Of a stretch of 64,000 nucleotides of DNA, positions 1-24,366 are shown piece by piece (position 1 is the first letter of the stretch; each line of letters starts with the position of its first letter). The stretch is from positions 256,001 to 320,000 of the forward strand of contig CAXXGI010000001.1 in the NCBI GenBank assembly GCA_963674695.2, read 5' to 3'. Source of the DNA: a bacterium. GTDB taxonomy: Bacteria; UBA10199; 2-02-FULL-44-16; JAAZCA01. Under the pieces are notes generated by a model. The model was not told the origin of the DNA. It worked only from the letters and a program-made list of their open reading frames with translations, and searched no databases. Both the position numbers and the translations under genes were made by a program.

Positions 1-3000
1 ACCGAACCCAGCGAAGAGCGCCTCTTTGAAGGGGTCATCGCCGCGATCGACTATCTGGCGGAGCTCGCTGCCGAGAAGGGATATGCGATCGATCCCGCGG
101 ATGCCTTCGCCGCACTCTCACCGGTCTTTCGCCGTCTGCGCGCCGAAGCGCTCGAGCGCGAAGCGGATGAACACGGCCGTCATCCGATCACCGTCTACAT
201 CCCGCCCTTCCTGCGAAACCTTGCGCCGGAGCGCATCCGCACCCAAACCTTTGCCGAGCAGCTCAACCAGGCGCTCAGGGCCTTCGACACCGAGCTGGAC
301 CCGCAGATGCAGCAACTCGTGCAGGCCTATCGCAGCGGCAATATCCACCATCCCCAGTATGCCACGCTCGCGCGCCTGAGCACCGCACTGGCGCTCATGG
401 ATGTCAGCCGCACCGAGCGCGACCAGGAACGCATGACCTACGAATTTCTGGCCGGCTTCATGCGCTGGATCGAGGAACTCCGCCTCACCCATCCCGACAT
501 CACCGACATCGCGGGAAAACCGGTGGGCTTGGCGCAGGACACCCCGACGCGGTTTTCGTTTCGCCTCGAGATCAACCCCACGCAGTGGAGCCGGTCGGGG
601 GACACGAGCTCCATGCGCGCGGTGCTCGCCGATGTGCGCCGCAACTACTACGACCGCTTGATCGAGAAGGTCGACGCCTACCTCGACGCGCTCGCCCGGC
701 TGCCGTTTTCGATCGCGCTGGCAACGCCGCCGCAGCACAACCTCGATGCCGGCATCGACGAAGCGCCGCAGACCATCGCGCTCGAAGATCTGCGTCAGGA
801 GTGGACGGAGCTGGCCGAACGCGAGGCGGAAGCACGCACGATGCTCGACGACGACGAAGCGACGAGCATCGAGCAACAGGAAGCCGTCGAATTCTATGCG
901 GATCTGGCCCAGCGCGCCGAGGAGACGCTGCTCTTCACGTGGGCCCACGGCGAGGCGCACGTCGGCGGCGTGCACATCCCGTATCAGGCGGCCGTGCGTC
1001 TCTCGGAAAAACACTCCGGCCTCAGGGAGCGCACGCGCGTCACGCTCTTTGTCGACGACGTCTTTGCCGCGGTGAGCGAAGGACACCTCGATGCGAAGCA
1101 GGTCGACGACATCCTGAAACTCCGGCTGATCCTCGGCCAAGCGGTCCTCGACGGTTCGATCGAGTCGAGCGCGCGACGCGATCCCGCGCGTGTGCGCGAG
1201 GCGATCGAGGAGCGCTGGCAGGGAAACGCCGAAGAACAGACACGGCTCCTGATGGCCGTCGACGAGATGATCGCCCTGGAGGGCGGGCCGGCCAAGGCAC
1301 GCCTGCAGAGTTCGCTCGCGAACGTCATCCGGACCGGCCGCAGGGTGAGTCGCCACAACGATGGACAGACACAGACGGGATTTCCCGTCGGATGGCAGGA
1401 GGATTTCGATCGGTTCATCGGCGACCTGGGCGCGAACGAATCGACGATCGCCGCAGCACGGGCCGCGCTCGTCGACTACGGCGCTGCCTCGAGGGGACTG
1501 ATCGGTCACTTCTGGGAGCAGACGCTCGAACGAGCGATCGAAACGCATGCACATGCAAACACTACCGATGCATCGCTCGTGCGCGATATCATCGTCGGAT
1601 TTCTCCCGGTGATCGGCGCCGCGAACGGACAGGCCGACACCGACTGGACCGGATACGACGACCCGCCCGAGCTGATCGCACAGCGCTCGCTGCAGGTCTA
1701 TCTCGACCTCGTCGACGATGCGACGCTCTCGCCGACCATCCCCATCGACGCGAGGCTTCTGGGCGATGTCATCGATCGTGCGCTGAATGAGCATCGCGAC
1801 ATCGGCACCCTCCCGCGACGCCGGCTCGTCCTGCGCCGCGTGCGCGACCTGATCGACGGACTCAATCGCAGCCGTCGCGGCATCCACAATGCGCCACACC
1901 CCATCACCCTCCCCGAGGGAAGTCTGGTGCCCGATGCGATCGAACGGATCGCGACAGAGATAGAAGCAAGCAACACCTTTATGCCGCGCATCGACCGTGC
2001 ACGCCTACGCCGCGCGTATGCGTACCTGCAGGGCATCCTGCTCACAGAAACATCCATCACCGATCACTCCATCACGGCCGCACTGCGCACGGAATCCAGG
2101 GGGGTCGTACCGCTCCCGACGGAAATGGCCGCACTGCGCCGACTCGCACAGGAGACGCAGAAACGGATCGCACTGCTGGCGGAGGCCATCGACCATCCGA
2201 CGATGGGGGTCGTTCCGGTCATCCGGGCCGGCCATCGCGCGCGCTACATCACCGATCGCGCGCTCACCACCCTCGCCCACGACTGGATGCGGCAGCGCGC
2301 TGTGCTCTTAAACCCCGCGTCGATCGAAGAGCTCGCTCTGAATGTCGTTCCCGAGGCGTTCGAAGCGCATCCGGTGATCGCCGAGAAGATCTCGCACGAG
2401 GCGGCACAGCTTGTCGGCACCTTCTTTCACACCGTCGAAGAGAGCTTGGGCGCACAGATCAACGCCGCGAGAGAAGCGCTGCAGGAAGCCGCTCAGGACG
2501 AGACGGTCATCGCGGGGGATGCCCAGGGTTTTGCCGACAAAGCCCTTCGCGGAAAAAACCTGCCATCGCTGGCGGTGCTGGCCGCTATGGAACGCACGCA
2601 CACGGCCGTGCGCGCACTCACCCAGAACACCATGGATGCGGTTACACCGACGCTGCGCGAACAGGCCGAAACGCTCTTCACCACGCTCGTCGATCCGCGC
2701 CGGATTGAACGCCATCGCACACTCAAAGCCAACGCGAACGCCTTTGACGAGAAGCTCGATGCCATCAGTGCCACGCATGCGCGCATCATGCTGCAGTCGG
2801 CGATCGCCCTCGAGGGCTCGGCCATTCCGACGATGGACACCGCGGCTGTCGCCAAGGCGGAGAAGGACATCCTCGCGGGAGCGAAGATCCTGACCACATG
2901 GCGCACGGAGCTGGAGACGATGGAGGCGTGGCTGACCGAAGCGCAGGATCTAGCGCTCATCCTCGAGGAACAGCACAATCCCTCCATCGTACGCCGCTCT

Positions 3001-6000
3001 CCGCTCGACCGAGGAGAACAGGCCGAGACCTGGGTGCAAAACGTGCGCGACAAGATTCAGACCGAAGCAGACCGGATGTCGGACATGAAAGAAGAGCTGA
3101 AGAAACGGCGCAACACACTTGTGCAGTTCGCGCGTGCAACAGACATCGCAGCATCGCTGACCGAACACGCCGGGCAGTTGCAGCAGGATCTCATCGCCAC
3201 GAGCCACCCCATCGACGAGGCGACCAAAGCTGCGCTCGCAGAGAACACCGAACTCATGGAGGCAGCGCTCGCGGAGGTCGACGCCATCGAGGGCGATCGC
3301 ATTCCGATGCCGCTCGTCGTCCAGGCCGAGCAGATGCAGCAAGCCCATCGAGGGGTTGCGGATAGGGCCCGCACAGCGCTCAAGGCGACGATCGCGCAGC
3401 TCAACGCCATGCCCGGACGAGCGCGCACCGACGGTCGCGATTCGACGCAGATGATCGCGGATGCCCGCGCCTTTCTCCAGGAGATCGAGACCGACGTCCT
3501 TCCCTTGTCGACAGCGATCGCTGAACTCGAAGGAACGATCGCAGCGATTCAACAGCACGCTCGCGATCTCTCGGCGCAAGAGTCGGCCCTGTCCAGACAG
3601 ACCGCTGCGCTGGCCTCATCGGTCGACAGCGCTCTCGACCGGATGCAGATCCCCGAGCCGGCGGGTCTCGATGCGATTCTCACAGAACCCATCCCGACGC
3701 CGAATTCGTCGCTCCAGTTGATCGAAGCCAACGCCCAACCGAACGTTCGCAAACGAGCCTCGTATCGCTTGCGCGCGATCCTCGACGGAGACGTCCTTCC
3801 GCAACATGAGGGGAGCCTGCTGCTTCTCAAAGAGACCGATACCCGAGGCGTGATCACCGGTTTCTTCGGACACGCGGGACGTTGGGATGGAGAGCGCAGC
3901 AGCGAACCGATCGCGCTCTCGGAACTCGCGAATCGCAACCCCGCACATCCCTTCGCCGCCATGCACACCACCCTCAGCCTCGCTCTCGAGGAAGACGGTG
4001 CCGAACACGCGGTATTGGGATATCTTGCGGCGGAAGGGCTCAAACACCATCCCGATGAGAAAGCCCGCGCGCTCCTGCAGAGCCTCATGGCCACACTCGC
4101 ATCCGAACCCGCAGCGATGAGTTCGAACGAGGCGCGCGCGCGGATCCGGAGTTGGATTACGGACCATGCGGGCAGGATCGCAGAGATGACCGCCCGCTCC
4201 TCCAAGGCGCCGAAGCTCTTCGAACCGGTCGCGCAAGCGGCGGAAGCGGATGCCCCGATCTATGCCGGCACGGGATACGACGCCGCGAAACACGCCGAGC
4301 TTTCCGGGCACACCGTCGACGATATCCTGCACGTGGGGAGGATGAATCACCTGCCGGATACGCCGATCATCCACGCCTCCTTGCGCACCCAGTATCAGGT
4401 CTATGCCGACCCCTCGCTCATGGAGTTGGGATGGCTTACCGCGCAAGCGAACGCGGGAAAGCTCGACACCGATTTTTCCCGTCTGTTCCTCAACCTGCTC
4501 GACGGCATGCACCTCGATCCGCGCTCCACCGAAAGAATGCCCTCTTCGCTCCACGACGTGCAGGCCTTCGCGGTAGACCTCTACCGGCGCATGCAGACGG
4601 ACCTCATCCACTGGCCGGAGATCGCAAACAGGAGTTATCCGAAGTCGACCGAAACGAAGCATGCTGACGAGTATGCGATCCTGTTCGAGCTGCTGCAGAC
4701 AGATCAAACCTTTCGCCACTGGTACACGATGGGGGATATGCTCGCCCTTCTGGGCAAGGCGCATGACGAGGGAATCGTTTCCCTTTCGAAGGAACAACGC
4801 GGCGCACTGAAGGCGACAGCAGACGCCAACGTGGCCTTCATCCAACGCGCCCTCGGCAAGACCGGCAAGAAGCCGCTGTCGGCGGAAAAACGCGCCGCAC
4901 TCCTTGCCGAACTCAACCTCACACCGATGTATGCGCAGGCGCGCCTGATCTTCAGGACCAAGCCAATGCGGGCGTTTCTCAACCGCGAATACGGCATTCG
5001 CCTGAAGGACGCCCCGCTCTTTGCGGAGACAAACCGGGATCTTATCCACGCCTTTCCGGAGACGCAGCTTGTCAGCCCCCTGCGCATGCAGGAGCATCTC
5101 AACGCGCACGCCACCGCACAATTCCTCGGCGAGTTCCTGCCCAAACTCCTGCCGATGTTCACGATCATGGCGCAAATCGATTGGGAAAAGGAGATCCCGG
5201 ACGCACTCTTCGATCGCCAGAACGAGATCTTTGCCGAGATCAATCGAGGCTATCGCTCGATCAACGCCAATCCGGACGCAAAGGAAAGAAACCGGCGCCT
5301 CGACGAGCTGGAGCGGAAAACGGCCGAGGCGCTCATCGCCCTCTGGACCGAGCACCGCGACGCCATTCGTGCCGCCCTGGGGAAAGAGAACGTCATCACC
5401 GGGAATACGCATGCCTACGATCTGACCGGCACCGACACCCCCTGGCGCAACGTTCACAGCTGGGAGGAATACACCGCACTCGAACGGCTGAAACTGGCCG
5501 CGCCGGATCTGATGCGGACGGAGAAGTTCCGCTACTGGGAGGAGGAGATCGAACCAACGATGCTCAAACGCTGGAAGGCTGAGGGGGATGATGGACCCAT
5601 CAACCGTCTGTGCGATACGATCGGGGCGCTCGATCTCGTCGCGCCGGAACGCTCCTTTCCACTGGTCGAGGTCTTCACCTCGCTCCTGATCCACGACCGG
5701 CTGCCGGAAAACGTCGAGGCGTTCCTGCACGAACACTATTGGGTCCATGAGGAGACCGAGAGCGAAAAATGGACACCGGAGAAGGCCTCCCCGGAGGCGC
5801 GCGCCGCGCGCGAGCGTTTCATCGAACTCATCCTCGAACCCAAGACGCTCATTCGCATCCGCGATGAACTGGATCGGCCGCTGGCCGATGGCAGCGTTCT
5901 CAACATGGCGCGCGTCGGACGCCGGTTTCCGGAGCGGCCCGATCTCATCCGACCGCGTGCGCGGCTGCACCACCGCATCACCGAACGCTTTCCACAACTC

Positions 6001-9000
6001 GCAGTCCATCGCTTGCGACGGGACCCGCGCATTCACGAAGAGCTCGCGAAAGTCGTTACCATGCTGGAGACGACTCATGACAGCACCAGCAGGGCGATCG
6101 AACATATTCCGAACCTGATCCGTTGGGGGCAGCAGACCGAGGCCGCCCTCCTCCTGCCCGCGCTCGTCTTTGGGTGGGGGCTCATCTCGCCCGAGCTGAA
6201 AAAAGCGATCGTCCGGTTCGTCGGCAGACAGATCAAGACGCTCCCGGCGCTCGCTGCTCAGGACACGAAGGCCGTGGCCCTGCACGAGGAGCAGATGCGC
6301 CAGTTCGTCGAGATCCTCGATGAACACCGAAGCGATCTCCTCACCGTACTGGCGATTCCCCTCATCCGAATGCCGGGAAAGGCAGCGCTTGTCCCCTCAG
6401 TTGGGGAACTCCCGCCGGAGACGACCGCGTTTGATCTCATCACCGGACTCGATCTGATCCTCCCCCCCGAAAGCAACCGTGCGATCGATACGCTCCCCAT
6501 CCATATCATCGAGGAACGCCTGCGTTTTCTCGGGCGCATCCTGCCGACCGATGAGAAGGGGGCGATGCCGATACGACTTCGGGAACTGATGCAGGACGTA
6601 GCCGAACGCGAGAGCCTCAAGCCCGCGGCGCTCGCTGAACTTGAAATCATCCGGGATGCGTATGTCCGGGATCAGCGAACGCCGACGGGGGCGATCGTTC
6701 GCGCACTCATGATGACCGACCACCAGCAGGGATCGAAGGACGTGTCGCCACTCGAGCGGGCGCTCCTCGACGCCTTCATCCCGGATCAGAACCGCGTCGA
6801 CCAGGAGCACTTCCTGCGCGAGGGCTATCGCCAGATCGTTTCGATGGATCGGATGGGACACATCTCGCTGATCCTGACGCATTCGGCCATAACGAAAAAA
6901 GAGCAACAGCGTCCTACCCCCCCCTTCGCGGAGGCGATCGCGCAGATCGTTCCGGACGAGGGGAACAGCTCCGACTTCACGATCCCGCAGATCGAGGCCA
7001 TGATCGAGGCGACGGGACTCGTTCCAACCGATCCACAGCAATTCAAGCGACTCCTGGCGAAGGCGCGCGCGGACATCCTGGATACGGCGATGGAGATGCA
7101 CCGGATGGAGCAGGGCCAGAAGAGACCGGACCCCCTCCGGGAGGGGCCGATCCGACAGCGGTTCCGCGATAAACTCAACGCACTGTCCGATGGAACCCAG
7201 CGCTGCCTGGTCGCCCTCATGGCGGCGGACCTCGCGCCGGAGAAATGGAATTCCGACCGATTCTATCTCGCCAACATCGTCCTGCGTCCGGCACGATCGA
7301 CACATGACGACATCCAGACCTCTTTCCAATGCCTCATCTCCAGCGCCAAAGCGATCAGGGCGGCCGTGCACAAGCGCCGCGCCGAACGCGAAGAGCAGAT
7401 CCTGCCGAAGGCGTGGAAGAGCGCGGGCAAGCTCTCGCTCGAGCAGATCGATGGCGTCATCGATGCGCTCGGTTTTGTCCCGAAGGGGAAGAATCCCCGG
7501 GGAGAACGCATGGAGCAGATCGCCGGAAAGCTGACCACGCGGGTGCTCGAAGAAAATGAACGCATCAACCCGCGCGATCCGGGGGGACTCAAGGCGATGG
7601 AGGAGCTCGCCGATGTCATGGCACGGCTCCCGGAGACCTTCTTCCGCGTCTATGCCACTTGCGTCGACATCGGCATCGAGAACCCGCTGGGAGGGGATGC
7701 CCTGCGCATCCTCCGGAGAGACCCGGATAGTCTCGGGCACGCCCTCTTCCAGGTCCACCTCTTGGACAATCGCCAAGAGTTTTTCGCGGCCTATTGGAAG
7801 CGGGAGGTCGACCGTATCCGCATCCAATTCGATCATCTGCCCACGCTCGAGATGCTGGGAACGGAAGCGACGGTCGAGCGCATCGGCGCGATCCTTGAGC
7901 GCCTCGACATCTTTCCGACAAACAAGAACTATCGCCAGGATCGCATGGCGATGTGGAGGGAGAGCTTTCGCCACAGCCTTCCGACCGACGATCCGATGAC
8001 GACCGCGCGCATGATCGCCCTCATCAACGCGCTCCCTGAAGAGGCCATTCGCTGCGCCTTTCTGCTGGGCGAAATCAACCCGGACGATCCGATCGAGGCC
8101 ATTTCCGACATGCTCGCACAGATCGCCGAACGCAACGGCGACGGCACGCCGGAGGCGATGGTGCAGCACTTCTATGCCGCAATCGGAGAACATCGCGAGC
8201 AAATCCTCCCCTACGTCGCCACGGAACGCGACCTTCGCGACCTGGGGGAGCGGACGCTTCTGCCATCGCCGTTCCTGGTGACCGAAGGAGAGAACGATGC
8301 GCGCGCGCACCGCTATCTGGACGCGCTCGACATCCTCGCGGTGGATGACCCCGACATGGAGCGGGGCATGGAGGCGATCCGCGCGAAGATCCGCACGATG
8401 AAGGGTCTGCCCGAAGAGAGCCGCGCGCGGTTTGCCGATGAGATCTCGCCACTGGCGCTCAAGATGATCGCCATCTTGAGCGTCGTCTATGAGCCTGATC
8501 ACGAGACGAACGCCTCCGGCCAGTTCGTCCGTCACCTCCATTGGCTCTACGAACGATGCTGGGGAGCAGGTATCCCCACGGACGATCACGACCGAATCGC
8601 CTCCTTTCTCTATGCGTTTTTCTGCCAGCACCGCAAAACGATCCTTCGAGAGCGCGGGCGGATCATTGCCGAAACGACGCCGCCGAAGGCAACCGCAAAA
8701 AAACGCGGCGGCAATGAAGGGGGCAGCGGCGGATCAACGCCGGCCGGCCCCGAGAATGCTGGCCCTGCGCCGACGACATCGGGGGGATCGGAGCACTCAG
8801 CCGCACCGCTCACGAACACACCGCTGGCATTCGATGCGATCGATGGGAGCGGCGATGTGTATATGCATGTAAACGATGCGCTGATCCCCATGGGCGGTGC
8901 CATCATGCCCGAGGCATATGACCTCATGGATGTGAGCGCGGAGTGCTACCTGGATGGAATGATGCCCGAAATGGGAATGATGATGCCCGCGATGACGGCG

Positions 9001-9015
9001 GGGATGATGATGTAA
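1..9015 (+). CDS. Giant hypothetical protein (>3000 aa, 5' end outside window); helical/coiled-coil, paralogue of 13498..24366; Met-rich acidic C-terminal tail
   Basis: Frame 1 is open from base 1 (TEPSEERLFEG...) through the ATG at 307 to TAA at 9013-9015. Shares colinear motifs with 13498..24366 (GFMRWIE, YYxxLxEKxDxYL, LTGTxTP), including in the region upstream of 307. Confidence 0.9.
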   Translation, partial: TEPSEERLFEGVIAAIDYLAELAAEKGYAIDPADAFAALSPVFRRLRAEALEREADEHGRHPITVYIPPFLRNLAPERIRTQTFAEQLNQALRAFDTELDPQMQQLVQAYRSGNIHHPQYATLARLSTALALMDVSRTERDQERMTYEFLAGFMRWIEELRLTHPDITDIAGKPVGLAQDTPTRFSFRLEINPTQWSRSGDTSSMRAVLADVRRNYYDRLIEKVDAYLDALARLPFSIALATPPQHNLDAGIDEAPQTIALEDLRQEWTELAEREAEARTMLDDDEATSIEQQEAVEFYADLAQRAEETLLFTWAHGEAHVGGVHIPYQAAVRLSEKHSGLRERTRVTLFVDDVFAAVSEGHLDAKQVDDILKLRLILGQAVLDGSIESSARRDPARVREAIEERWQGNAEEQTRLLMAVDEMIALEGGPAKARLQSSLANVIRTGRRVSRHNDGQTQTGFPVGWQEDFDRFIGDLGANESTIAAARAALVDYGAASRGLIGHFWEQTLERAIETHAHANTTDASLVRDIIVGFLPVIGAANGQADTDWTGYDDPPELIAQRSLQVYLDLVDDATLSPTIPIDARLLGDVIDRALNEHRDIGTLPRRRLVLRRVRDLIDGLNRSRRGIHNAPHPITLPEGSLVPDAIERIATEIEASNTFMPRIDRARLRRAYAYLQGILLTETSITDHSITAALRTESRGVVPLPTEMAALRRLAQETQKRIALLAEAIDHPTMGVVPVIRAGHRARYITDRALTTLAHDWMRQRAVLLNPASIEELALNVVPEAFEAHPVIAEKISHEAAQLVGTFFHTVEESLGAQINAAREALQEAAQDETVIAGDAQGFADKALRGKNLPSLAVLAAMERTHTAVRALTQNTMDAVTPTLREQAETLFTTLVDPRRIERHRTLKANANAFDEKLDAISATHARIMLQSAIALEGSAIPTMDTAAVAKAEKDILAGAKILTTWRTELETMEAWLTEAQDLALILEEQHNPSIVRRSPLDRGEQAETWVQNVRDKIQTEADRMSDMKEELKKRRNTLVQFARATDIAASLTEHAGQLQQDLIATSHPIDEATKAALAENTELMEAALAEVDAIEGDRIPMPLVVQAEQMQQAHRGVADRARTALKATIAQLNAMPGRARTDGRDSTQMIADARAFLQEIETDVLPLSTAIAELEGTIAAIQQHARDLSAQESALSRQTAALASSVDSALDRMQIPEPAGLDAILTEPIPTPNSSLQLIEANAQPNVRKRASYRLRAILDGDVLPQHEGSLLLLKETDTRGVITGFFGHAGRWDGERSSEPIALSELANRNPAHPFAAMHTTLSLALEEDGAEHAVLGYLAAEGLKHHPDEKARALLQSLMATLASEPAAMSSNEARARIRSWITDHAGRIAEMTARSSKAPKLFEPVAQAAEADAPIYAGTGYDAAKHAELSGHTVDDILHVGRMNHLPDTPIIHASLRTQYQVYADPSLMELGWLTAQANAGKLDTDFSRLFLNLLDGMHLDPRSTERMPSSLHDVQAFAVDLYRRMQTDLIHWPEIANRSYPKSTETKHADEYAILFELLQTDQTFRHWYTMGDMLALLGKAHDEGIVSLSKEQRGALKATADANVAFIQRALGKTGKKPLSAEKRAALLAELNLTPMYAQARLIFRTKPMRAFLNREYGIRLKDAPLFAETNRDLIHAFPETQLVSPLRMQEHLNAHATAQFLGEFLPKLLPMFTIMAQIDWEKEIPDALFDRQNEIFAEINRGYRSINANPDAKERNRRLDELERKTAEALIALWTEHRDAIRAALGKENVITGNTHAYDLTGTDTPWRNVHSWEEYTALERLKLAAPDLMRTEKFRYWEEEIEPTMLKRWKAEGDDGPINRLCDTIGALDLVAPERSFPLVEVFTSLLIHDRLPENVEAFLHEHYWVHEETESEKWTPEKASPEARAARERFIELILEPKTLIRIRDELDRPLADGSVLNMARVGRRFPERPDLIRPRARLHHRITERFPQLAVHRLRRDPRIHEELAKVVTMLETTHDSTSRAIEHIPNLIRWGQQTEAALLLPALVFGWGLISPELKKAIVRFVGRQIKTLPALAAQDTKAVALHEEQMRQFVEILDEHRSDLLTVLAIPLIRMPGKAALVPSVGELPPETTAFDLITGLDLILPPESNRAIDTLPIHIIEERLRFLGRILPTDEKGAMPIRLRELMQDVAERESLKPAALAELEIIRDAYVRDQRTPTGAIVRALMMTDHQQGSKDVSPLERALLDAFIPDQNRVDQEHFLREGYRQIVSMDRMGHISLILTHSAITKKEQQRPTPPFAEAIAQIVPDEGNSSDFTIPQIEAMIEATGLVPTDPQQFKRLLAKARADILDTAMEMHRMEQGQKRPDPLREGPIRQRFRDKLNALSDGTQRCLVALMAADLAPEKWNSDRFYLANIVLRPARSTHDDIQTSFQCLISSAKAIRAAVHKRRAEREEQILPKAWKSAGKLSLEQIDGVIDALGFVPKGKNPRGERMEQIAGKLTTRVLEENERINPRDPGGLKAMEELADVMARLPETFFRVYATCVDIGIENPLGGDALRILRRDPDSLGHALFQVHLLDNRQEFFAAYWKREVDRIRIQFDHLPTLEMLGTEATVERIGAILERLDIFPTNKNYRQDRMAMWRESFRHSLPTDDPMTTARMIALINALPEEAIRCAFLLGEINPDDPIEAISDMLAQIAERNGDGTPEAMVQHFYAAIGEHREQILPYVATERDLRDLGERTLLPSPFLVTEGENDARAHRYLDALDILAVDDPDMERGMEAIRAKIRTMKGLPEESRARFADEISPLALKMIAILSVVYEPDHETNASGQFVRHLHWLYERCWGAGIPTDDHDRIASFLYAFFCQHRKTILRERGRIIAETTPPKATAKKRGGNEGGSGGSTPAGPENAGPAPTTSGGSEHSAAPLTNTPLAFDAIDGSGDVYMHVNDALIPMGGAIMPEAYDLMDVSAECYLDGMMPEMGMMMPAMTAGMMM

Positions 9016-9018
9016 GAA

Positions 9019-9050
9019 TGAAGGGTGAGGGGCGAAGGGTGAAGGGTGAA
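9019..9050. repeat. Heptamer tandem repeat (TGAAGGG)n
   Basis: tgaaggg tgagggg cgaaggg tgaaggg tgaa directly after the stop codon. Confidence 0.7.
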
Positions 9051-9077
9051 AGAGCGGAAATATTGATAGAGCAATGA

Positions 9078-9150
9078 TTGTCATCCCCGTGAAAACGGGG
9101 ATCTCGATGGATCGTGACAATCGAGATTCCCGCCTGCGCGGGAATGACAA
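9078..9150. repeat. REP/RS3-like double-hairpin palindromic element, copy 1
   Basis: TTGTCATCCCCG-N-CGGGGATCTCGA...TCGAGATTCCCGC-N-GCGGGAATGACAA; near-identical copies at 13359 and 59230, variants at 30598 and 49933. Confidence 0.9.
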
Positions 9151-9162
9151 ACTTCGACACAA

Positions 9163-9195
9163 CACGCTTCACGAGTTACGAGTCACGAGTTACGA
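9163..9195. repeat. Heptamer tandem repeat (YACGAGT)n
   Basis: cacgctt cacgagt tacgagt cacgagt tacga; the reverse-complement family occurs at 49886-49930. Confidence 0.7.
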
Positions 9196-9207
9196 AAGGA
9201 TGTTCGT

Positions 9208-12200: not shown

Positions 12201-13248
12201 CCTGCGGCAGATCCTCATGAACGTCGAACGCGATGCCCAGGGAAACCACGTGCATGTTCCGGAGCACGCGGAGACGCGCGCACTCATCGAGGAGACCGCC
12301 GCCGCCCATGCCGGCTGGACGCCGATTGAGGAGCTCGACGATTCCGTACGAGCGCTCGTGCGCATCGCCAGAGAAAACGCCCTGGTGACCGACAATGGAG
12401 GCCTGATCCATCCCCGCGAAGCGGGCGATGAGGTCCAGCGCGGCGTACAGGCCTTTCTGCGCGACGGAACGATCGCACCGGCGGGATGGAAGCCCCTCTG
12501 GGAGCTCCTCCATCAGCATGTCACCCCGGCGGGCAAGGCCCGCGCCGCCGAGCGCGACGATGTTATCGAGGCATTCCATGCCCACATGGAGCGGACACAG
12601 CATTGGAAACGAATCGAGACCATCCCGGAGGGAAGACGCCCGCTCGTGGAACACCTGCGCACGCATCGACTGCGCACGGCAGGCGGTACGCCCATGGGGA
12701 ACGCGGCGCTGGATGCGTTTTTCCAGAGCGGAGCGATCGTCTACAATGATCTCTTCGATCCGAACGAGTTCTGGGATCGCTATGCGCTGACCGTCGCCGA
12801 AGCCGGAATCGCTGCCAGCGGTGCGATGACCTTCGCCCACACTCCACCCCACATTACCAGACAGGTCGAGACGATGCGACGCATCGGCCTGGCCGTCTGG
12901 AAGGCAAGCGATCAAACCGGCGACGTCGTTCATCCCGCAAACGCGCGGATCAATCCGATCTCGGGCAAAATCGAGATCCCCGAGGATGAGGACCCCTCCA
13001 AGGGGGGCGGTGGATCGAGCACGCCACCGATCGTCTCCGGCGGTGGAGAACAGACGCCGACGCCCGAAGGAACGGACACCGCCCTGCGCTCGGGGCTCGC
13101 CCTGATGGAGGCCGATGCCGCACAGATGATGGCGACGGAGGATATCGCGCTATCGCCCTTCGAACCCATTGGAATGACAGGGGAAATAGACAGCATCGCC
13201 GAATTTCAGAACCCCCTCTTCGCCCTGCGCCCCGGCCTCATTCGATAG
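9208..13248 (+). CDS. SF2 DExH helicase/ATPase (ResIII/IRC3-like core) with HTH, three C-terminal repeats and acidic tail
   Basis: Walker A APTGSGKT, Walker B LLDEYHH, motif III GFSAT, motif V GEGADIP, motif VI QNPGRAFR; HTH-like LAEMAFDLAVSEATLVGYLNG; AAGGA RBS upstream. Confidence 0.85.
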   Translation: MVGFKTDLNFAQLFQDADKRRRGMELLVYAEAELGYDPEELTPIAQAIEHPARFDEEMLEHLRTIHKEAIASGFHFLRDDAAPAIARQARRFAERAPKTKSPRAPAQKHEPAPADTPRPETTPAPAAVPPTPAWNATQAEYLERFADESRVLAQKIEANTATWAERYGDAGAQRAEAIVNRLHWLIGERDRAQSLRQLGYLHDVVDALRILINRVDRTELELGRANPSGSPFSVHLHGLFTPPTIQSEALPIERVPRTHETRPRNALPFPMGESVIEPGTVIPALESVPRAGLLTPTRPHQLEILNPIGAYWALHRSRIEEEPVAEASIVAPTGSGKTHEMAATIEIGMREGWLQMNDGGKAFILTHLRRITGQNEAAMKLLLDPVFRKRLGRPIRVTKVDADGWDLSGDAVLVSVPTAGRKTNAARFAHEAQVQFADRAHPYALTLLDEYHHGIFAATWRRTIEAIADAATSAFNLGFSATIPQKLRARANVIAEQDVLDLMRRKVLPPVTYAPVRMGVDLKWITTTGHDLNQKDLSQTVRTLEHHYHLMRALEDHGIRSGRGGFAPTLHFGVDVAHIEEFARYYQWYFSKEDRYGDGPARADASPAMGVRQIAVITEEMSRDPKAVKRLIDAYRAGRRTTFERFVFGEKADTGAFRSIGEYTGKIDGIIAVMTAKTPENVRDMLMEASKPRRTGPGAIETLLSIGVIGEGADIPWAQNIIPDKPTLSEIPASQNPGRAFRHDKWHIESDGTVVYIPPRIIIEPRYDRPDLVTVLDALGITDHALARIGGAQIDLVTEAIGRQGYGHLSDVWKSNAETKEVERKPVVVPQPEELIPISGVREHVLLPQRMVGEMPRLMRHILQEDYEGKLAEMAFDLAVSEATLVGYLNGRTPSDARLLARMGIFLYQGRDVLARQHKFDENGWVPRTELNAAIRPLVQQARDQSFALFGATLPRYGFTTTDGWRSGPLNLNPVIRFLRDGKIPRSFRGKKGNFWTNLRQILMNVERDAQGNHVHVPEHAETRALIEETAAAHAGWTPIEELDDSVRALVRIARENALVTDNGGLIHPREAGDEVQRGVQAFLRDGTIAPAGWKPLWELLHQHVTPAGKARAAERDDVIEAFHAHMERTQHWKRIETIPEGRRPLVEHLRTHRLRTAGGTPMGNAALDAFFQSGAIVYNDLFDPNEFWDRYALTVAEAGIAASGAMTFAHTPPHITRQVETMRRIGLAVWKASDQTGDVVHPANARINPISGKIEIPEDEDPSKGGGGSSTPPIVSGGGEQTPTPEGTDTALRSGLALMEADAAQMMATEDIALSPFEPIGMTGEIDSIAEFQNPLFALRPGLIR

Positions 13249-13258
13249 AAAAAACCAC

Positions 13259-13284
13259 GCAACAATTTGAAAATGTCACCGATA
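13259..13284 (+). promoter_or_regulatory. Candidate alternative-sigma promoter GCAAC-N16-CGATA
   Basis: Same two boxes with identical 16-nt spacing occur upstream of the GH13 gene (44571-44596, minus strand). Confidence 0.35.
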
Positions 13285-13358
13285 CAGAAGGGAAATCGTC
13301 GGGAAAATATACATCTTACGCAGCAATGCTGCACGAGATTGGCGACGAACCTTGCTTG

Positions 13359-13430
13359 TGTCATCCCCGCAGAAGCGGGGATCTCGATGTGCTCTGACAA
13401 TCGAGATTCCCGCCTACGCGGGAATGACAA
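13359..13430. repeat. REP/RS3-like double-hairpin element, copy 2
   Basis: tgtcatccccgcagaagcggggatctcga...tcgagattcccgcctacgcgggaatgacaa. Confidence 0.9.
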
Positions 13431-13497
13431 ACTTGGAATCGCGGGAAAAGTGACAACCTGCATCCACCGCTGAACGTCGAAACGGAGCCAGTGCCCT

Positions 13498-16400
13498 ATG
13501 GGAGATGACATCAAAAAAACGGGAGGGGCATCGCACATCCCCCACCCGCAATCCGATATCCACGAAAGCGACGAGGGCGGCACCACACCATCCGACGCGC
13601 ACGATGCGGTGGACACCTATGTCGCGGCATCCGCGACAACACCGCCCCCATCTCTCCTCTCGCGAAAGATGATCGATGCGCAGCTCAAGGAACAGGGAAT
13701 GACGCTCCATCGTGAGCACCCCTACATGAGCGTCAACGAATACGACTGCTATCGCATCCTGCAGTATGCCTACGATACCCTCGTCGACGATCTCTTTCCA
13801 AAAGTGCGTACGCGGTTTGTCGAGGGCGAACCCCCCAGCGGAAAGAAATTCGACGCGCTCATCGAACGCAGCCTCGTCATGGGTTATGCCGGACAGATGC
13901 AGGTCACGCAGAAGGAGGCGAAAGGACGCATCTCCTCATTCCGCGAAACCTACGTCACATTCATCCGGGAGAACCTTGCGCGACTGGGGCTCACCGGCAC
14001 GGGGAAACCCACATCGTCGTCACAACCGTCGACGGCGCACGCATCCACATCGACGCTCACGCCCGCGACGCTGGCCACCTTTATCCTGCACGCCCGCGCA
14101 CAGATCGGCGCGATCGAAGCACTGCTGCGCGAACTTGCGGACGAGGATCGCGTGGCGGGAGAAGAAGCGCTTTCCCGCGCACAGCGGGTCGAGGCGGAAC
14201 ACCTCCGCCCTCTGGGATATGACGAAGCGCAGATCGTCGGCAATCTCTCCCGCGGCAACCACCGCAAAGAACGCGCACAGACCATCGCCGACAAGACACG
14301 CATCATCGGCGATCTCTTTTTCGATGTTCGCGCGCAGCATACGCGCGAAACCCGACCGATCGATATCGATCGCGTCGATACCCTCATCGATGCGGAAACG
14401 GGCACCGGAAAGAAGCGCCGATCGATGCGCGACGATCTCGAAGCCTGGATCGCTCAGCACATCGACAATCCTGAGGCCGCCGAACGGCTACGCACGGCGG
14501 CGGTCATGGCCATCGGATGGGGTATGGGGGCAACCCAACCGGATCAGTTGCCAAGGCTCACGCTCTCATCCGAACGCATCGAAGATGCGGCCTTCATCGC
14601 GACGGAGAGGATCGCCGATCCGGATCAGCGCAGAGATGCACGCGATGCGCTGGCACAACAACTGCTTTCCGCACTCGCCCATATCGCACTGCGCGCCGGC
14701 CGGCGTCAGCTCCTCACCGCTGATACCGACACCCGCGCAGCAAAACCGACCGTACACGCGCGGCGAAGCGAACACCGTCTCACGCTCGCGACCGATTCCG
14801 CTCGCGGCATCCGATTCATCCCTTCGGTCAGCGGCGGCATGAACGAGCTGATCGAGGCAATCGAAGAGAAAATCGGGCCGATCGACGCCGACCGCTTCGA
14901 GCAGATCACCGACATCAAACTCTCCATCTTCCGCGGATACGGCCAGCTGCGCACGCAGCGCACCGCCAGCCGCGACAACTGGGCGACCGTCGTCGAACTC
15001 CACCAGGGCGAGACCTGGCCAAAGCTCGTGGCCATCGCCGAGGAGAACGGAACGCTCGAAGAACTGCTCACGCGTTTCCCCCCGGCCAACAGCAACGACG
15101 CGCGGTGGAAACAGCGCCTTCACGACGCGCGAGGCGACGACACGCTGATCGATCTGGCAACAGGCTACACGCCCGCAGCCTTCGTGCTCAAAGGGGGCCT
15201 GCGCCGTATGCTGGAGGCCTATCTGCCGAAGAAAGCGGACGTGCGCAAACGGATGCAACGCGAGATCGACGAATACGAGAAGGCGGGGCTCCTCGGGGAA
15301 AACGCGCTCGAGACCATGCCGACCGCCTTCACCCCTTCCGACTGGGAGCTCCTCATCGCCCACGCCGTGGCCGCCGATGAGTTGGAGAAACTGACCGTCG
15401 AACCGAAGCAGCGCGACGCCGACGAAAAGCTGCTCATCGCCTTCATCCATCTGGGCACGCTCGCGCGCAATCGCGGGTTCGAACTCGACCCGGTCGATTT
15501 CGCTGCGGCGCTCTCGCCCATTATTCGCAGCATGCGCGATCACGCCGACACAGAGGGAACCATCATCGTTCCCGTTCCGAAATTCATGGGGGACCTGGAA
15601 TATACCAACTACGGCACGCCGACGTTTGCGAGCCGCATGAAGGGGATCGAAACCGCCATGCCCGAGGCCACGCGCCAGAACCAGGCCGGTGGCCACGTGC
15701 AGCGCGCCAGTTGGCTCTCGCTCGATCGCATCAACAGCTCGCTGGCAGGACGTGATGTGAGCGAGAGCGACGATCAGATCCGTTCGCACAAGCAATTCAA
15801 CGGCGGGTTCATGCGCTGGATCGAACTGCTCATGGGCACCATACCCGACATCCGCGACGCCGCCGGACGACGCATCGACCTTGAGGGAATCACCTCGCGA
15901 TCGCGCTATCGCTTTCAGCTCGTGCCCAACGCCGCCGAATACGCCACCGACGCAAATGAGAGCAGGACGACGCAGAGCGCCCCGCGCCTTTTGGCCGACG
16001 CCCATCGCGGCTATTACGGAAAACTGCTGGAAAAGGCGGACGGCTATCTCGCTGCAGTCGAAGCACTCCCCTTTCCGGTCACCGTCACGCGCCCCGCACA
16101 TCATGGAATGGATGCGCAGACGAACACTCCGATCGATCGACCCGAAGAGGAGATTTCCCCCGCCCAGCTGCGCTCAGAAATTGCGGAGCTGATCTTGCAG
16201 GAGGAGATCCACCGCGATCGGCTGGAGCAAGGCGGCGCCTCTGCCCAGAGCGATGCCCAGACCATCGCCTTCTATCGTCGCATCGGGAGATTCGCGCGCG
16301 AGATCTTCTATCACCTTCCCATTCGGGGAGTCGCCGCGATCGACGGATTCGACATCCCCTTCCAGGCGGTAGCGAAGCTGGCTCGCCAGCGACTGCGCCC

Positions 16401-19400
16401 GGAACACGCTGGCCGCACCACGCTCGTCATCGACGACATCTTCGAGGCGGCGCATGCACAAGGGTGGAGTGCCACCCGACGCAATGCGCTCATTCGCCTG
16501 CGGCTGCTCATGGGGCTTGCCCGGCGCGAAGGACGCTTGACGCCGAATATCGTGCATGCCGGCGAAATCGTCGAGGCGCTGCGCCCGATCTGGGAAGCCC
16601 CCGAGCACCTGTTGGAACAGGCCGCGCTCGACTTCATTGCGCTGGGTCAACGCGTGCCACTCGATGATGCGGGGCAAGCGCTTGCAACCATCATCGGCCG
16701 TGGACGACAGGCGCCATCGGCTGGACCGCATGAGCCGAACCTTCCCGGACACGCCGAGACCTGGGATGTGCAGTTTCGCCAGTTCGCCGCCGAACGCGAT
16801 GCCGATTCAGCGATGATCGAAGCGGGCCTTGCCGCCATACGCACCTATTTTGCGACGACCCACGGCTTTGCCTCGCATTTTTGGAGCGCACGGCTCGATT
16901 CCGCAGTCCATGCCGCCGCCCACGAACAGGATGTCGACCCCATCGCGCTACGCGCGCTCATCTGTGAGAGTTTCGGCCGCATGGGTATCGCCAACGGAAA
17001 ACCCGTCGATGGGCTCCACATCATCGACCCAAACTCTCCGGAACACGCGGTGCGCACGCGCCTGGCCGAAATCGCGGTCTCCGCCTACATGGGGCTGTTC
17101 GCCCATGATCCGAAACTCATTCTGAAGGTGCCGGTGCAGGAAGAGCTCATCACCGATGTCGTCCGACTCACGTTGGAGGAATACGGGCAACAGCTCGATC
17201 ACCCGCCGCGTCCGCACCTCGTTGCGCGGGAGACGCGCATTCTGCTGCGCCGCCACAACGAGCGCGCACACATTCCGCATACGCGGGCCAACAACGCGCT
17301 CCCCACCACGGGACTGCTCGAAACGCGACTGGCTCACGCCGCAACGATTTGGGAGGCGAAGCACCCGGACGAAAAAATCGATCGCACACGAACGTTGGAT
17401 GCCGTTTTGGCCGCCAACCGCAGCCGCCCCTCCGACGAGAACGCCGAAGCCTCCGCGCTGCAATCGCTCTCTGAAAACGACGCCCACTTCGTGCGCCACT
17501 ATTTGCATCAGCAGCGGGAAGCGCTTGCGGATTTCGAACAGCTCATGGCCGACCCCGAAATGGGATTTGCCAAACGTGCGCGCAAACGATTTGCCGCGCC
17601 AAATGTGACCGACCAATCCCTCGTCGCCTTTGCGATAGCCTTCGCGCGGGAACGCTTGACGAGCGTTTCCCCCACGCCAGCACGTGATATCGCCTTTGAA
17701 CTCGTCGCTGATGACTTTCTGCCCTTCGAGGCCATCGCCCACCGCATGACCGAATCGCTCACCGGCATGCTGGCGACGACGTTCAGCGACATGCATGAGC
17801 AGATGCGCGAGGAGATCGATCTCGCCCGAACGGCCATCGAAATAGAGGCAAACGACGAAACCGTGGTGGTCGCTTCATTCAAAGCATTCATCGAAACGGT
17901 GTGCTCGCGAAACGAACTGGGCAGCTGGGAGGATGTACAGCAACGAGATCGATCCTGGGGACTGCTCGCCGACGTCGCTGGAATCGACGCGGAGGGAACT
18001 TCGATCGAAGCGTTTGCACGACGTCTTTATACTGAACAGGTTGTTCCTCGCTTTGAAAAGATGCAGGCCGAGCACGCCGAGAAGATCGAGCGCATCGATA
18101 CAGCCGAAGAACAGGCCGCGATCCTGCAGAACAAAATCGGCATGATCTCGGCGATGTATGCGATGGTCCCGAACACGGCCGCCATGAACGACAAGGCGAT
18201 CGAGCGCGCCCAAAAACACCTCGACCGGGGCGCACGCGTTCTGCTGCGCCAGACGACGGCGATCAAAGCCATGCTCGAAACCCACAGCGAACTCGAGGAG
18301 ATCGCCACGCAACTGGACATGAGCGATCTCATCGATCGGGTCATCGCCATTGAGGAGAAGCTTGTTACGGCTACGGAGGAAGCCAAGGCCGTGACCGCGC
18401 GATTCGAGGAACATCGGGTCCTGCTGAATAAGCGTGCTGACGAGATCGAGCAGGACAAGACCGAGCAGGAAGCGATCGCCTCCGCGAAAAAGATGGCGCA
18501 GCACGGAGCGACGCGGGCATTGGAGATCGCGAGCGCCATCGCCGACACAACCTCCCAGGCAGCACAGGCGCAGATCGATTCCCTGCAGGAAGCACAGGCG
18601 GCGTTCATCACGGCCATGGAGACCGCTCAGAACGCACCGACGATTCCACACATGACCGCGGCCGGCGCTGCACTGAATGATTTTCTTTCGATCCGCGAAA
18701 AAACAGATCCCCTCTTCGATGCAGCGACGAACACCGTCACCCATGCCCTCTCCCAGCATGCGCCGCATCCGAACAGCGCCAGCCAACTGTTGACGCGATT
18801 GCAGACCATCGATCCGGCAACGGCGGGACCGCATGCGAGGACCCTTGCTGAATCGATCACGAAGCTTCAGGACGCCATCGCGACCGCTGGAACATTTATC
18901 ACGCGCATGCAGGAGATCCGTGCGATCGGCGTCGAACCCATGTACACCGATCTGCGCGCCATCGAAGCGCGTCTTCCCGCCATGCCGCCACAACTGCCGG
19001 AACCGGGAGTGATTTCCACCGAAGACGATATCATCCTCGACGATCGTGAAGTCACCATCTCGAGGACAAGCACCGACCCGAACGCCAGCACACGGGCGCA
19101 AAAGAGGCTCGCCCCCATCCTCGACGCACGCGTTTTGCACACCGCATCGCAGAGCTTCCTCCTGGCGACGCAACAGCACACGCGCGTGCAGACGTGGCTT
19201 TCCGGAATGCGCGACGAGACGCTCACGGCCATGGACCTCTTCGGCAATCGGATCACGCTCGACGCCCACCGCTGGGGGTTTCACCTCGACAATCCCGCGT
19301 CCGGCATCGGCGCGATCGGAACAGATCACCCGTTTCATCGCATCGTGAACCTGCTCGCGGCGGCCGTGAGCACAGAGGATGGCACGCTTTTGCTCTTGGT

Positions 19401-22400
19401 GGAGCTGGCGCGCAAACAACTCTCGGGTGGCGTTGCCACCGACGACCTGCGCAACTTGCTCGCGACGCTGGCGATCGCGCCGCACCCCTCCTCGCCGGCC
19501 GATGCCCACAAGACGATCCGCCGCTGGGCGTTGGCGAGGGCGGAGCGGCTCGCACAGGTCCTGGGCACAAAACAGAATGCAATCTTCGTCGACACCACCC
19601 CGGCATCTGAAGAGGCAAAACACCTTCCGATGCTGTCGCCACGTGAGCGCACGATCCAAGCGCGGTTTTCCGCACACAACACAACCCACCCGCACCTGGG
19701 GCTGATGACGATCGTGACGCCCAAGGGGACGCATGAATTTCTCATCGATCCCGAGGAGGTCGATGCAAACAAGGCACGCGTAGACCGCCGCGAAATGCGC
19801 GCCAGCAACGCCGTCTTTCATCTCTACGATCCGACCGACAACCGAGAAAAGGAAATGAGTTCCGAAGCGATGCGCGCCATCGGGGCATGGGATGAAAAAA
19901 ACGACGTGGTCATCACGACCCCGCTGCAGGACGATCCGGTCTTGTGGCAAAAGGAGCGCTTGATCTGGCGTATCTTCGTCGACCCGCGCCTGACCAAACT
20001 CGCCGCCATCGTCCATCACCAGCGCAAAGGCACTGGCCCGGAGGGCTTCAACGACTTCCTGGAACGACTGCTCGCCCCCATCGCCTTCGCCGACGACGAG
20101 ACCGACACGTCGCTCTCGCTCATCGCCGCACAGGATATCGCCGTCGAGCAATATGAGCGCTTTCAGAGACGAGGATACGACCTTCCGGAGATCGTCAATG
20201 CCGACTTCAATGCCATCGCCAACCTGGTGCGCGGTTGGATGAGAACAAACTACCAATTGACCGAAAACGACACCGAGCACCTGCTTGACGCCGCCCGAGA
20301 AAACCCCCTCCTGAAGCGAACGCTCACACAGCTCATGATAATGGGCGCGATCATCGCTCAGCGAAAGGGCCTCCCTCCGAAGATCTCAGATCGGATGTGC
20401 AAGCACTGCTCGGATCTCCTCTCGAGCTTCGCCGAGATCCTCATCCATGCCCAGCCGAACCAGCGATCGATGCGATTCAACCGCGCACTGCGGCGATTTC
20501 CAACCGACCGTCTCTATCGCGAGGAACGCCAATGGATCGTCGATCCCGAGGGGCTGGGCCTGACCGCACCGCTCCACGGCTGGATCCATCCGACCTATCC
20601 CGACGACGCTCCCTGGCTGATGCCCACGGATTCCAGCGCGCTCATGCGGTTTCCCGAGATCGGGCGCGTCGGGATGGAGCGGATCCTGATTTTCTATCAG
20701 GAGAAGGAAGAAAACGCGGCCGCGTTCCCGAAGGGGCTTGTCGAACTCGCCTTCATCGCACCGAGTCTGGCGGGACTCTTCACCATCATCGCCACCGTCC
20801 ACCGGCGTCTGCCTCCGGAATTCGAAACCGAACTCAAGGGCATCGCGGATGCGTTCAGCAACGCGCTCCCGCGCACAAAAGTCGAACACAAAGACACGCA
20901 AACCTTCACGCAACAGCAACGGGCGATCAAGCAGACCGTACAGAAGGTCCTTTCCCTCTATCAACGACACCGGGCGATCATCCTCGAAGCGCTCCAGCGC
21001 CGCGACCTGATGGCCTACCGCACGCTGGGCTGGTGGCTGACGGGAACGGAGACGCCGCAGAACGAGGTAGAGCAAGCCATACCGGAACGCGCATCACTTC
21101 TACAGCTGCCGCTGCTGGCGCACGTTGCCCAGCCGCACCCGGCGCTGCTCGACATCCTGCCTGAATGGGGACGACCAGACCTTTCGCTTTCGAAGACGAA
21201 TGCCTTGATCGCACAGCAGGAACGGACCACACTCCCCCCGACGCTGCAGACCGCCGCGCAACACGTCCTGACGCGCACACAGGCCTGGCCGATGGCAGCG
21301 CTGGCAATGCTGACCCGCCCGCTTCTGTCGGATGCCCTGCGCACCGACCTGGACAGCGCCTTGCGCCTATCTGGAGCCGAAGCGAAAACGCTCGTCATTG
21401 CAAACGACCCCGCATCTCTGATGCACCATGATCGCATCGTCGCGCGCTTCGCTGCCGTCGCTAAAAAGCATCGTGATGAAATCCGTGAAATCCTGATGCG
21501 CCCAGCCAGCGACACCGGAATCAAGGGAACACAGGAACAGCTCCAATACGCCGTAATCGAAGACCTGCTCCACGAACAGTCCATCTTCCTGCCCCCCTCG
21601 CAATTGGACGCGATCGAGAGTTGGACCGATACGGAAACGCTCGAACAGATCGAAAACGATCTGAGCGCACTGGATTTCTTCTTTGAAGAGGACGGCGGGA
21701 CCCAGGATACGCGTTTGTCAACGACGCGCCGCTGGCTCGAACTGCAGTTCACCGTTATCGCCACAAGCTTGAAATCGGGTGAGCTGCCCACAGAACCCCT
21801 TCCGGTCATCTCCACGCAGGTCAACGAACTCCCACCGGCCATGCTGCACATGGCCCTGCTCGTGGGCATCAACGACACGCTCGGCATACACGCACAGCGA
21901 TGGATCGATCGCATCCACGATGCCGAACTGCTCGATCGCGACGCCGGCATCACCGACACGATCGCCCTGGCCAAGGAGATGTATCGCTTCCTCATCGAGG
22001 AACGCGCCCACCTCCATTCGTCGATCCAGCGCCGGCGTCTGGCGCTGCATGCGCACACAGCGGCGGAAGAAATGGACGACGAAGTTGACGAAACCAACCG
22101 CCACCGCCAACTCGGCATCGAAGCAGAGCGGATTTTGGCGCATCCTTCGCTTTCCGTCCTCACGCTGAAAACCCTACAGGGCACAGAACAGCACCTGGTC
22201 GACGACGACCAGTTTTCCCGCGACATGGAAGCCCTTCGAACGGGGGAGATGAAACCCGGACAGTTCGTCCTTCGCACCTATGACAAGCGGGACGATCGCT
22301 GGCTCGAGTTTCCGGCGCACACGATCGCAATGTGGGGAGTGAACAATATTCGTTCGGCCGCACGAATGCCGCCCCTGAACGACTTTCCACGATTTCTTGC

Positions 22401-24366: not shown

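Follow-up and report, generated by a model that had tools for sequence, protein, structure and literature searches.

A lineage-restricted family of giant proteins whose C-terminal tail recurs on unrelated proteins, a candidate Sec-independent cargo set in an uncultured bacterium

What are the giant proteins encoded in succession at one end of a 64,000-nucleotide stretch of a bacterial chromosome (positions 256,001 to 320,000 of contig CAXXGI010000001.1, assembly GCA_963674695.2, lineage UBA10199; hereafter the window), and would they act inside or outside the cell? The genome (G000) is 3.03 Mb in size with a G+C content of 58.5%, comprises 3 contigs (C1 to C3) and is 100% complete; the window corresponds to G000:C1:256001-320000. 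Three DNA sequencing runs, all of a single study, were listed for it, and no RNA run. An initial annotation made from the sequence alone had pointed out two related giants in it and had likened them to polymorphic toxins or MARTX-like proteins. In this study, four giant paralogs were identified in the genome, and they were found to share a C-terminal linker and tail with a set of otherwise unrelated, strikingly cysteine-poor proteins, several of whose genes lie behind a sigma-28-like promoter motif. Based on these observations, we put forward as a tentative explanation, possible rather than established, that the tailed set might represent Sec-independent exported cargo; the giants would then be structural or effector proteins with long stalks, acting outside the cytoplasm, and a type III apparatus would be the candidate route.

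The relationship between the giants was assessed by the pairwise alignment that the initial annotation had proposed as a check. BLASTP between the two products encoded in the window, P0001 (3004 aa) and P0002 (3622 aa), returned a single colinear high-scoring segment pair (HSP) spanning residues 2-1403 of the query and 635-2028 of the subject, with 378 identities over 1473 columns (26%; E-value 2e-80), and the peptide pairs quoted earlier all fell within this HSP. The predicted colinear paralogy was thus well founded. Its extent, given as more than 1300 aa, was also correct as far as colinear similarity is concerned, but the similarity was not confined there, since the full-length proteins gave extra HSPs at the N-terminus and within the C-terminal half. 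The first giant proved to be cut by the window edge: the open reading frame (ORF) at 1..9015 on the plus strand is open at its 5' end and encodes only the last 3004 residues of a protein of 3763 aa, whose genomic start was located at G000:C1:253724, 2277 nt before the window, at an ATG furnished with a GAGGGAG ribosome-binding site. We refer to this giant as paralog B and to the complete P0002 (13498..24366, plus strand) as paralog C; the two are 26-27% identical, with E-values of 2e-80 to 5e-115. Furthermore, the giants, related as stated, number four in the genome and not two, three of them being arranged in tandem. Paralog A (3209 aa), directly upstream of P0001, aligns with P0002 over 2644 aa at 31% identity, and for paralog D (2902 aa), located on contig C2, the identity was 23-27%. 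A genome-wide scan with the block hidden Markov models (HMMs) described below found no fifth paralog and no further ORF with any block of the family.

In order to place the giants among known proteins, a HMMER profile of the 1068-position core was searched against 1.84 billion cluster representatives, which yielded 50 proteins at E <= 1e-3, 39 of them at E <= 1e-30, with most of the matches being 1500-4400 aa long. The family was present in 13 of the genomes of 40 relatives, namely in 8/12 of the same family, 11/21 of the order and 2/19 of the rest of the class. A word-indexed search of 5.8 billion proteins with residues 635-2030 of P0002 returned only the genome's own paralog, and the ESM Atlas gave no usable match for either the core or fragment P0043. 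In a quick maximum-likelihood tree, paralogs A, B and C formed one clade, ((A,C),B), with a Shimodaira–Hasegawa-like approximate likelihood ratio test (SH-aLRT) support of 99 and long branches of 0.6-1.25 changes/site, in good agreement with the earlier view of a conserved body after an old duplication. In the same tree, paralog D was left unplaced, and genus g2 carried duplications of its own. Judged from these sequence comparisons, the giants are a small, lineage-restricted family of uncultured bacteria, undescribed hitherto. In one relative, G008, two large ORFs of 866 and 890 aa (L019 9314-14585) were observed directly after the giant homolog.

Pfam searches of the four paralogs and 16 relatives matched no family, and the earlier statement that RTX and RHS motifs are missing from the giants therefore held for this wider sample as well. 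For P0001 and P0002, the only match at E <= 0.1 was a sub-threshold one to an ATG17-like coiled coil (14.8 bits, cut-off 43), consistent with the lack of a recognisable domain noted at the outset. NCBIfam gave no match for the proteins of the island or for five tails, and when the PDB was searched by sequence, using A2 and A3 as profiles or the helicase-like protein encoded between the giants as query, no E-value was better than 0.045. AlphaFold2 models were built for the core of P0002, predicted to consist of helical domains and an alpha/beta region (mean predicted local distance difference test score, pLDDT, 79.3), and for residues 1850-2560, covering the post-stalk domain and the adjoining module (mean pLDDT 77.9; predicted template modelling score, pTM, 0.54). 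Neither model matched a solved fold. As had been anticipated, the structure-model and PDB searches thus connected the giants to no characterised family.

The architecture of the family was deduced by mapping 13 block HMMs on 50 homologs, and is described here in P0002 numbering with window coordinates for paralog C on the plus strand. An N-domain (residues 1-420) was found only in a subset of the homologs. The family-wide core, ~900 aa in length, lies at residues 600-1480; in paralog C, this universal core was delimited at residues 590-1485 (15265..17952) and includes the GFMRWIE, IPFQA and HFW blocks. The core is followed by a spacer or stalk of unconserved sequence, the length of which was ~380-410 aa wherever both flanking blocks could be mapped. 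In paralog C, this predicted helical, Pro/Gly-poor stalk occupies residues ~1480-1850 (17935..19047), and residues ~1300-1700 contain 1-6 Pro plus Gly per 100 aa vs 8-17 elsewhere. Such a Pro/Gly-poor stretch of near-fixed length is compatible, in amino acid composition, with the central coiled-coil-like stalk of the initial annotation. The post-stalk domain (residues 1850-2050) was universal in the family and precedes a two-block module of ~500 aa (residues 2050-2560) present in one or two copies per homolog. P0002 carries two, of which the first, together with the post-stalk domain, corresponds to 19045..21177 (residues 1850-2560), and the second, diverged copy to 22123..24006 (residues 2876-3503). 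The plan further includes lineage-specific segments, in P0002 at residues ~2560-2900, and ends with a Gly/Ser/Pro-rich linker and the tail, which in paralog C lie at 23995..24363, with PLVV and ELLEMGGADF inside and AGAALAF at the terminus. Variable C-terminal modules had been expected in this part of the giants, and this expectation did not hold: the part past the stalk is composed of a universal domain and the conserved ~500-aa module or modules, and the terminus is a tail common to unrelated proteins. Among the four paralogs, Walker A, metal and Cys motifs were not conserved, the single Walker A match being confined to paralog A; an SMC-like or other nucleotide-driven coiled-coil machine was considered and rejected, as the four paralogs have no conserved Walker A heads. 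In addition, BLAST revealed no internal repeats in the giants, and no convincing transmembrane segment or strong hydrophobic segment was identified in them. The giants would accordingly be described, in our proposal, as proteins of ~2000-4400 aa, mostly helical, built on a fixed plan with an optional N-domain.

The linker and tail arrangement was found on at least 12 proteins, comprising the four giants, the helicase-like protein, an alpha/beta-hydrolase-domain protein and at least six more, and four further candidates with weaker tails bring the set to at least 12-16. It begins with a low-complexity Gly/Ser/Asn/Pro/Thr linker, often followed by P-L-V-V-E, continues with an acidic-hydrophobic stretch in which a [ED]-[LM]-M-[DN]-[ML]-G-A-[DE] element recurs, and closes with a Pro/Met/Ala-rich hydrophobic end. 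The tail of paralog B, for example, consists of the last 80 aa (8773..9012, plus strand), is acidic and Met-rich, follows a Gly/Ser/Pro linker and has the terminus MMPEMGMMMPAMTAGMMM. Ten consecutive plus-strand genes at C1:234723-285232 carry the tail, and the other carriers are dispersed, among them a protein of 2257 aa in which an ABC1 kinase domain was recognized and an HATPase_c protein of 899 aa. No model in Pfam or NCBIfam matched the tail. No N-terminal hydrophobic signal was present on any tailed protein; the N-termini are polar and Gly/Pro-rich. In the relative G001, four tailed genes (2289, 2850, 1104 and 405 aa), with the giants again in tandem, adjoin the same pyruvyl-transferase and MiaB-like genes as in the genome studied here, and thus the island represents a conserved chromosomal locus and not a mobile one.

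The tailed proteins were further characterized by a depletion of cysteine. Their median Cys content was 0.2% (16 proteins) vs 1.2% in 1999 other ORFs (Mann–Whitney p = 3e-7), and 5 of the 16, including proteins of 2257, 1412 and 1346 aa, contained no Cys at all. Among the 1068 background ORFs with a length of 350 aa or more, only 24 were Cys-free, and several of these encode envelope or secretion proteins.

As for the regulation of the tailed genes, a motif C[AG][CA]AAC-N16-CGA[TA]A was identified upstream of paralogs A, B and C and four other tailed genes. At paralog C, it reads CGCAAC-N16-CGATA and is located at 13258..13284 (plus strand), 212 nt upstream of the gene. The promoter consensus was CGCAACTTTT...GCCGATA with the spacing CGCAACTTTT-N12-GCCGATA, the -35 element being CGCAACTTTT. 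Sigma-28 (FliA) recognizes the consensus TAAA-N15-GCCGATAA, and its regulons are coupled to type III export; the -10 part GCCGATA is identical to what we take to be the sigma-28 -10 element. The strict motif occurred at 128 sites genome-wide vs 4-8 in shuffled genomes, and it was found within 300 nt upstream of 7/16 tailed genes vs 70/2259 other ORFs (Fisher p = 3.5e-7). In the relatives, a relaxed motif preceded the giant homolog by 28-90 nt, counted to its first start codon, at 8 of 10 loci in several genera, where the chance expectation would be ~0.01 per 400 nt, as roughly estimated from base frequencies. The likeness to sigma-28 regulons lies in the GCCGATA -10 element upstream of three of the four giants and in the location of a FliA-like sigma gene next to the cluster with the type III ATPase; the -35 element, the size of the regulon and the score of this best FliA/WhiG-like sigma gene set it apart from them. 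The sigma gene is encoded at a distance of 2.5 kb from SctN and scored 132.7 bits, where the cut-off is 189.6. A 165-aa ORF next to it (C3:9399-9896) would be a candidate for an anti-sigma factor of the FlgM type. Sigma-54 promoter-like sites were found upstream of 0/16 tailed genes and 0/7 type III genes vs 74/2015 in the background.

The motif was also observed in front of many large proteins, among them a 3396-aa ORF at C1:508009-518199 and a pair of ~1300-aa paralogs at C1:39198-43163 and C2:55659-59582, and more tail-like ends were noticed among the genes behind it. Five Cys-poor proteins with the same promoter motif and Met/Ala/Pro-rich hydrophobic C-termini (G000:C2:755473-758610, C3:176873-177961, C3:802570-804666, C3:830412-831926 and C1:989739-991235) are probably additional members of the tailed set.

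The secretion machinery encoded in the genome was surveyed for a possible route. This complete genome yielded no match to either VirB4 (PF03135) or the type IV coupling protein (PF02534), nor were the type VI sheath VipB, a phage-type sheath or flagellin found in it. The best match to the HlyD-type adaptor TIGR01843 reached 35 bits vs a cut-off of 208, and no HlyB-type exporter was found in the genome, its sole ABC_membrane protein being a GGDEF fusion beside metabolic genes; TolC-like proteins were present. Of the other machines, the genome encodes a Tad locus, a type IV pilus and a type II system. It also encodes a non-flagellar type III export apparatus, split over three loci (C1:140901-143066, C3:8530-24918 and C3:761006-762082). 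SctV reached 793.7 bits with the SctV model, above the cut-off of 692, and failed the FlhA model (683 vs 772), and SctR likewise passed the yscR model and failed that of FliP. The SctN/FliI ATPase passed both kinds of model, an SctQ-like protein was present, and SctU remained just under both cut-offs. FHA/YscD-like proteins and SecA adjoin SctV, and the main cluster also contains a tetratricopeptide repeat (TPR) protein at C3:24322-24918, the best match of which was LcrH/SycD at 66 bits, below the cut-off. No secretin was found among the ORFs scanned within the three loci, where the ORF calls include several antisense ORFs and describe the gene content incompletely. The type III apparatus was the only candidate machine detected for the tailed set, and may serve as its exporter.

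Export of the tailed proteins, as we tentatively propose it, would proceed without a signal peptide, possibly by the non-flagellar type III apparatus, and the giants would act outside the cytoplasm in cell-cell interactions. That such large proteins are delivered had been suggested by the initial annotation, and this part of the suggestion remains plausible given the scarcity of Cys, the shared tail and the presence of a type III apparatus; the likeness to MARTX proteins is not supported. A number of observations nevertheless weigh against our proposal. The principal objection concerns position: the type III signals known so far lie at the N-terminus, and the element shared by the set lies at the C-terminus. 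In addition, no tailed gene adjoins the type III genes, the tailed helicase would be an odd candidate for export, and the matches of the FliA-like sigma factor and the LcrH-like protein are both below curated cut-offs. The class II chaperone motif PxLxxP occurred in 4/16 tails, a number which shuffled tails reached in 20-83 of 1000 trials. Tail profile A4, when searched against the 40 relatives, matched only its own 12 training sequences, and the comparable acidic-then-hydrophobic tails of the relatives' giants, recognized by eye, are conserved in kind only. The promoter motif was missing from paralog D, the helicase gene and several other tailed genes, and the class of 128 sites drives many ordinary-looking genes; in such a large and mixed regulon, the shared promoter constitutes only weak evidence, indicating a regulatory association and not proving a link to secretion. 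Finally, the type III gate protein was present in 39/40 relatives vs 13/40 for the giants, and with the gate nearly universal and the giants in a minority, there is no discriminating co-occurrence that would argue either for or against the link. A more specific version of the proposal, that the linker and tail constitute a new address label marking sigma-28-controlled, Cys-free cargo, with stalked giants of 3000-4000 aa, a helicase, a lipase-like hydrolase and a kinase among it, for needle-less, myxobacterial-type type III export, appears improbable to us at present.

A serious rival, although one that we regard as somewhat unlikely, is that nothing is exported and that the giants stay in the cytoplasm as a kind of scaffold or cytoskeleton, with the linker and tail serving as a peptide that docks them, the helicase, the kinase and the hydrolase to one intracellular hub. 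Tails that dock to hubs, such as the C-terminal peptides of SSB and FtsZ, are constructed in this manner, with a flexible linker and then a short conserved acidic-hydrophobic end. The tailed set does hold typically cytoplasmic enzymes (the superfamily 2 (SF2) helicase and the proteins with ABC1 kinase and HATPase_c domains), no secretion machine using C-terminal signals was detected in the genome, and the fixed-length stalk would suit a spacer or ruler. Such a scaffold, however, leaves the extreme Cys depletion unexplained, the median of the genome being 1.2% Cys; the fast divergence and lineage-specific duplications of the giants fit conflict or surface proteins better, and the family is missing from 27/40 relatives. 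The Cys depletion and the tail would fit equally well with export by a route other than type III, whether an undescribed tail-reading pathway, a Tad-like apparatus comparable to the Kil system of Myxococcus, or vesicles or lysis, and we consider this rather unlikely. Among these routes, Tad has a point in its favor in that paralog D lies ~5 kb upstream of the Tad locus, with TadE, RcpC, a secretin and CpaF. This route is weakened by a phyletic mismatch, as no Tad ATPase homolog was found in four giant-bearing genomes (G016, G018, G019 and G026; completeness 94, 83, 81 and 98%), whereas the homolog was present in four family-mates without giants; moreover, the main island does not lie close to any secretion genes.

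Two further explanations accommodate less of the evidence. It is very unlikely, in our estimation, that the island constitutes a helicase-centred anti-phage defence system or another conflict system of very large proteins. The position of an SF2 helicase between giant genes with no assigned function and the fast evolution of these genes would be in line with it, but the chromosomal position is conserved between genera, the relatives' loci often have no helicase neighbour, and this explanation does not account for a tail that also occurs on unrelated proteins encoded at dispersed sites. A search of 11 proteins against PADLOC-DB 2.0 (2023) gave only marginal matches, to LmuB (E = 0.0014, paralog A, at the coiled-coil level) and mad6 (E = 0.0043). 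Least likely of all, and hardly tenable in our view, is the polymorphic-toxin or MARTX-like nature inferred in the initial annotation, in which a conserved delivery body would bear swappable C-terminal toxin modules. While the giant size, tandem paralogs, low cysteine and enzyme-domain neighbours are reminiscent of such toxins, Pfam scans of the four paralogs and 16 relatives turned up no toxin or CPD domain and none of the RTX, RHS or haemagglutinin type, and no type I secretion parts were detected in the genome. The C-terminal halves are homologous modules ending in the common tail, so that no variable tip was found, and the genes behind the giants encode large tailed proteins instead of small immunity-like ones.

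The export proposal can also be set against better-known systems. LifA/Efa1 (lymphostatin) of E. coli is a giant type III effector of ~3200 aa. Like it, the giants run to thousands of residues, lack a signal peptide and share their genome with a type III system; they show no sequence or domain similarity to it, however, and its glycosyltransferase and protease motifs were absent in the Pfam scan. The proteins with the C-terminal domain (CTD) of type IX secretion and the Legionella Dot/Icm effectors are cargo sets with C-terminal signals. As in those sets, unrelated proteins here end in one lineage-specific element after a flexible linker and their genes are partly clustered; the present set differs in that neither a type IX-type CTD nor a type IV system was found here and that the proteins have no Sec signal peptide, and the tail is low-complexity, acidic and Met-rich, with a profile blind outside the genus. 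With MARTX/RTX and Rhs-type toxins, the giants have in common the size, tandem paralogy and low cysteine, and they differ from them in the absence here of RTX/RHS repeats, type I parts, a variable tip and immunity genes. In Myxococcus, a Tad-like system (Kil) and a needle-less type III system (T3SS*) act together, and two reviews describe the effectors of these systems as unknown (PMC10433427, PMC10849154). The type III components found here, namely SctV, SctR, SctN, the SctQ-like protein, SctU and the LcrH-like TPR protein in a flagellin-free genome, resemble the T3SS* of M. xanthus, from which they differ in being scattered over three loci and in that a link to the giants was not seen.

Within the window, the first 29 kb is occupied by five plus-strand genes in succession, encoding a giant, the helicase-like protein, a second giant, the hydrolase and a 504-aa ORF product. 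Paralog B and the helicase gene are separated by a spacer at 9016..9207 (no strand assigned), which contains a multi-hairpin element of ~80 nt in addition to tandem repeats of the heptamer type, some GAAGGGT-like and others CACGAGT-like. The element, TGTCATCCCCG...CGGGGATCTCGATG...ATCGAGATTCCCGCCT.CGCGGGAATGACAAACTT, is present again at 13362-13431 in the spacer between the helicase gene and paralog C (13249-13497). The SF2 helicase-like protein P0003 (9208..13248, plus strand; 1346 aa) possesses a ResIII domain at residues 297-484, a Walker A sequence APTGSGKT and a DEYH box read directly from its sequence, zero cysteines, and the linker and tail; the word-indexed search of 5.8 billion proteins returned only the protein itself. 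The tailed alpha/beta-hydrolase-domain protein (24391..27690, plus strand; 1099 aa) starts 24 nt past paralog C, and a GHSFG nucleophile elbow was read in its sequence. The run is closed by a 504-aa protein with no family assigned (27718..29232, plus strand), the start position of which is uncertain and the tail of which is weak, being a short acidic-hydrophobic C-terminus. A 971-aa ORF at 29269-32184 on the plus strand was rejected as a gene and regarded as a high-GC antisense artefact, because two real genes, one for a pyruvyl transferase and one for a radical-SAM enzyme resembling MiaB, lie on the other strand. Elsewhere in the window, the gene content is that of an ordinary chromosome, with YchF, IleRS, LspA, Nth and two Lgt genes among it. 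The two Lgt (prolipoprotein diacylglyceryl transferase) genes, at 48463-49260 and 53483-54319 on the minus strand, are 4 kb apart and flank lspA and ileS. Elsewhere in the genome, a 12,808-aa ORF (G000:C2:526741-565167) was noted to end in a Gly-Gly-Gly-Cys-Ser type motif, and several other large proteins end in GGGC or GC followed by a hydrophobic helix and an Arg/Lys cluster; such termini resemble sorting signals of the MYXO-CTERM-like kind.

The giants offer candidate new folds, to the extent that two confidently predicted models without a structural match may be relied upon, and the conserved length of the stalk suggests a molecular ruler or a means of reach. The conserved sigma-28-like promoter provides a handle with which the remaining cargo might be found in related genomes. 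If the tailed proteins were cytoplasmic after all, a docking tail common to unrelated enzymes would represent an unusual organising principle. If, on the other hand, the export proposal is true, ~2% of the genome, a run of roughly 50 kb, would encode undescribed giants and a tail-tagged cargo set, in a lineage where the sole Sec-independent export machine detected is a non-flagellar type III apparatus like the one with which myxobacteria kill prey. Should that apparatus be the route, the tailed proteins would provide such a system with its first candidate substrates.

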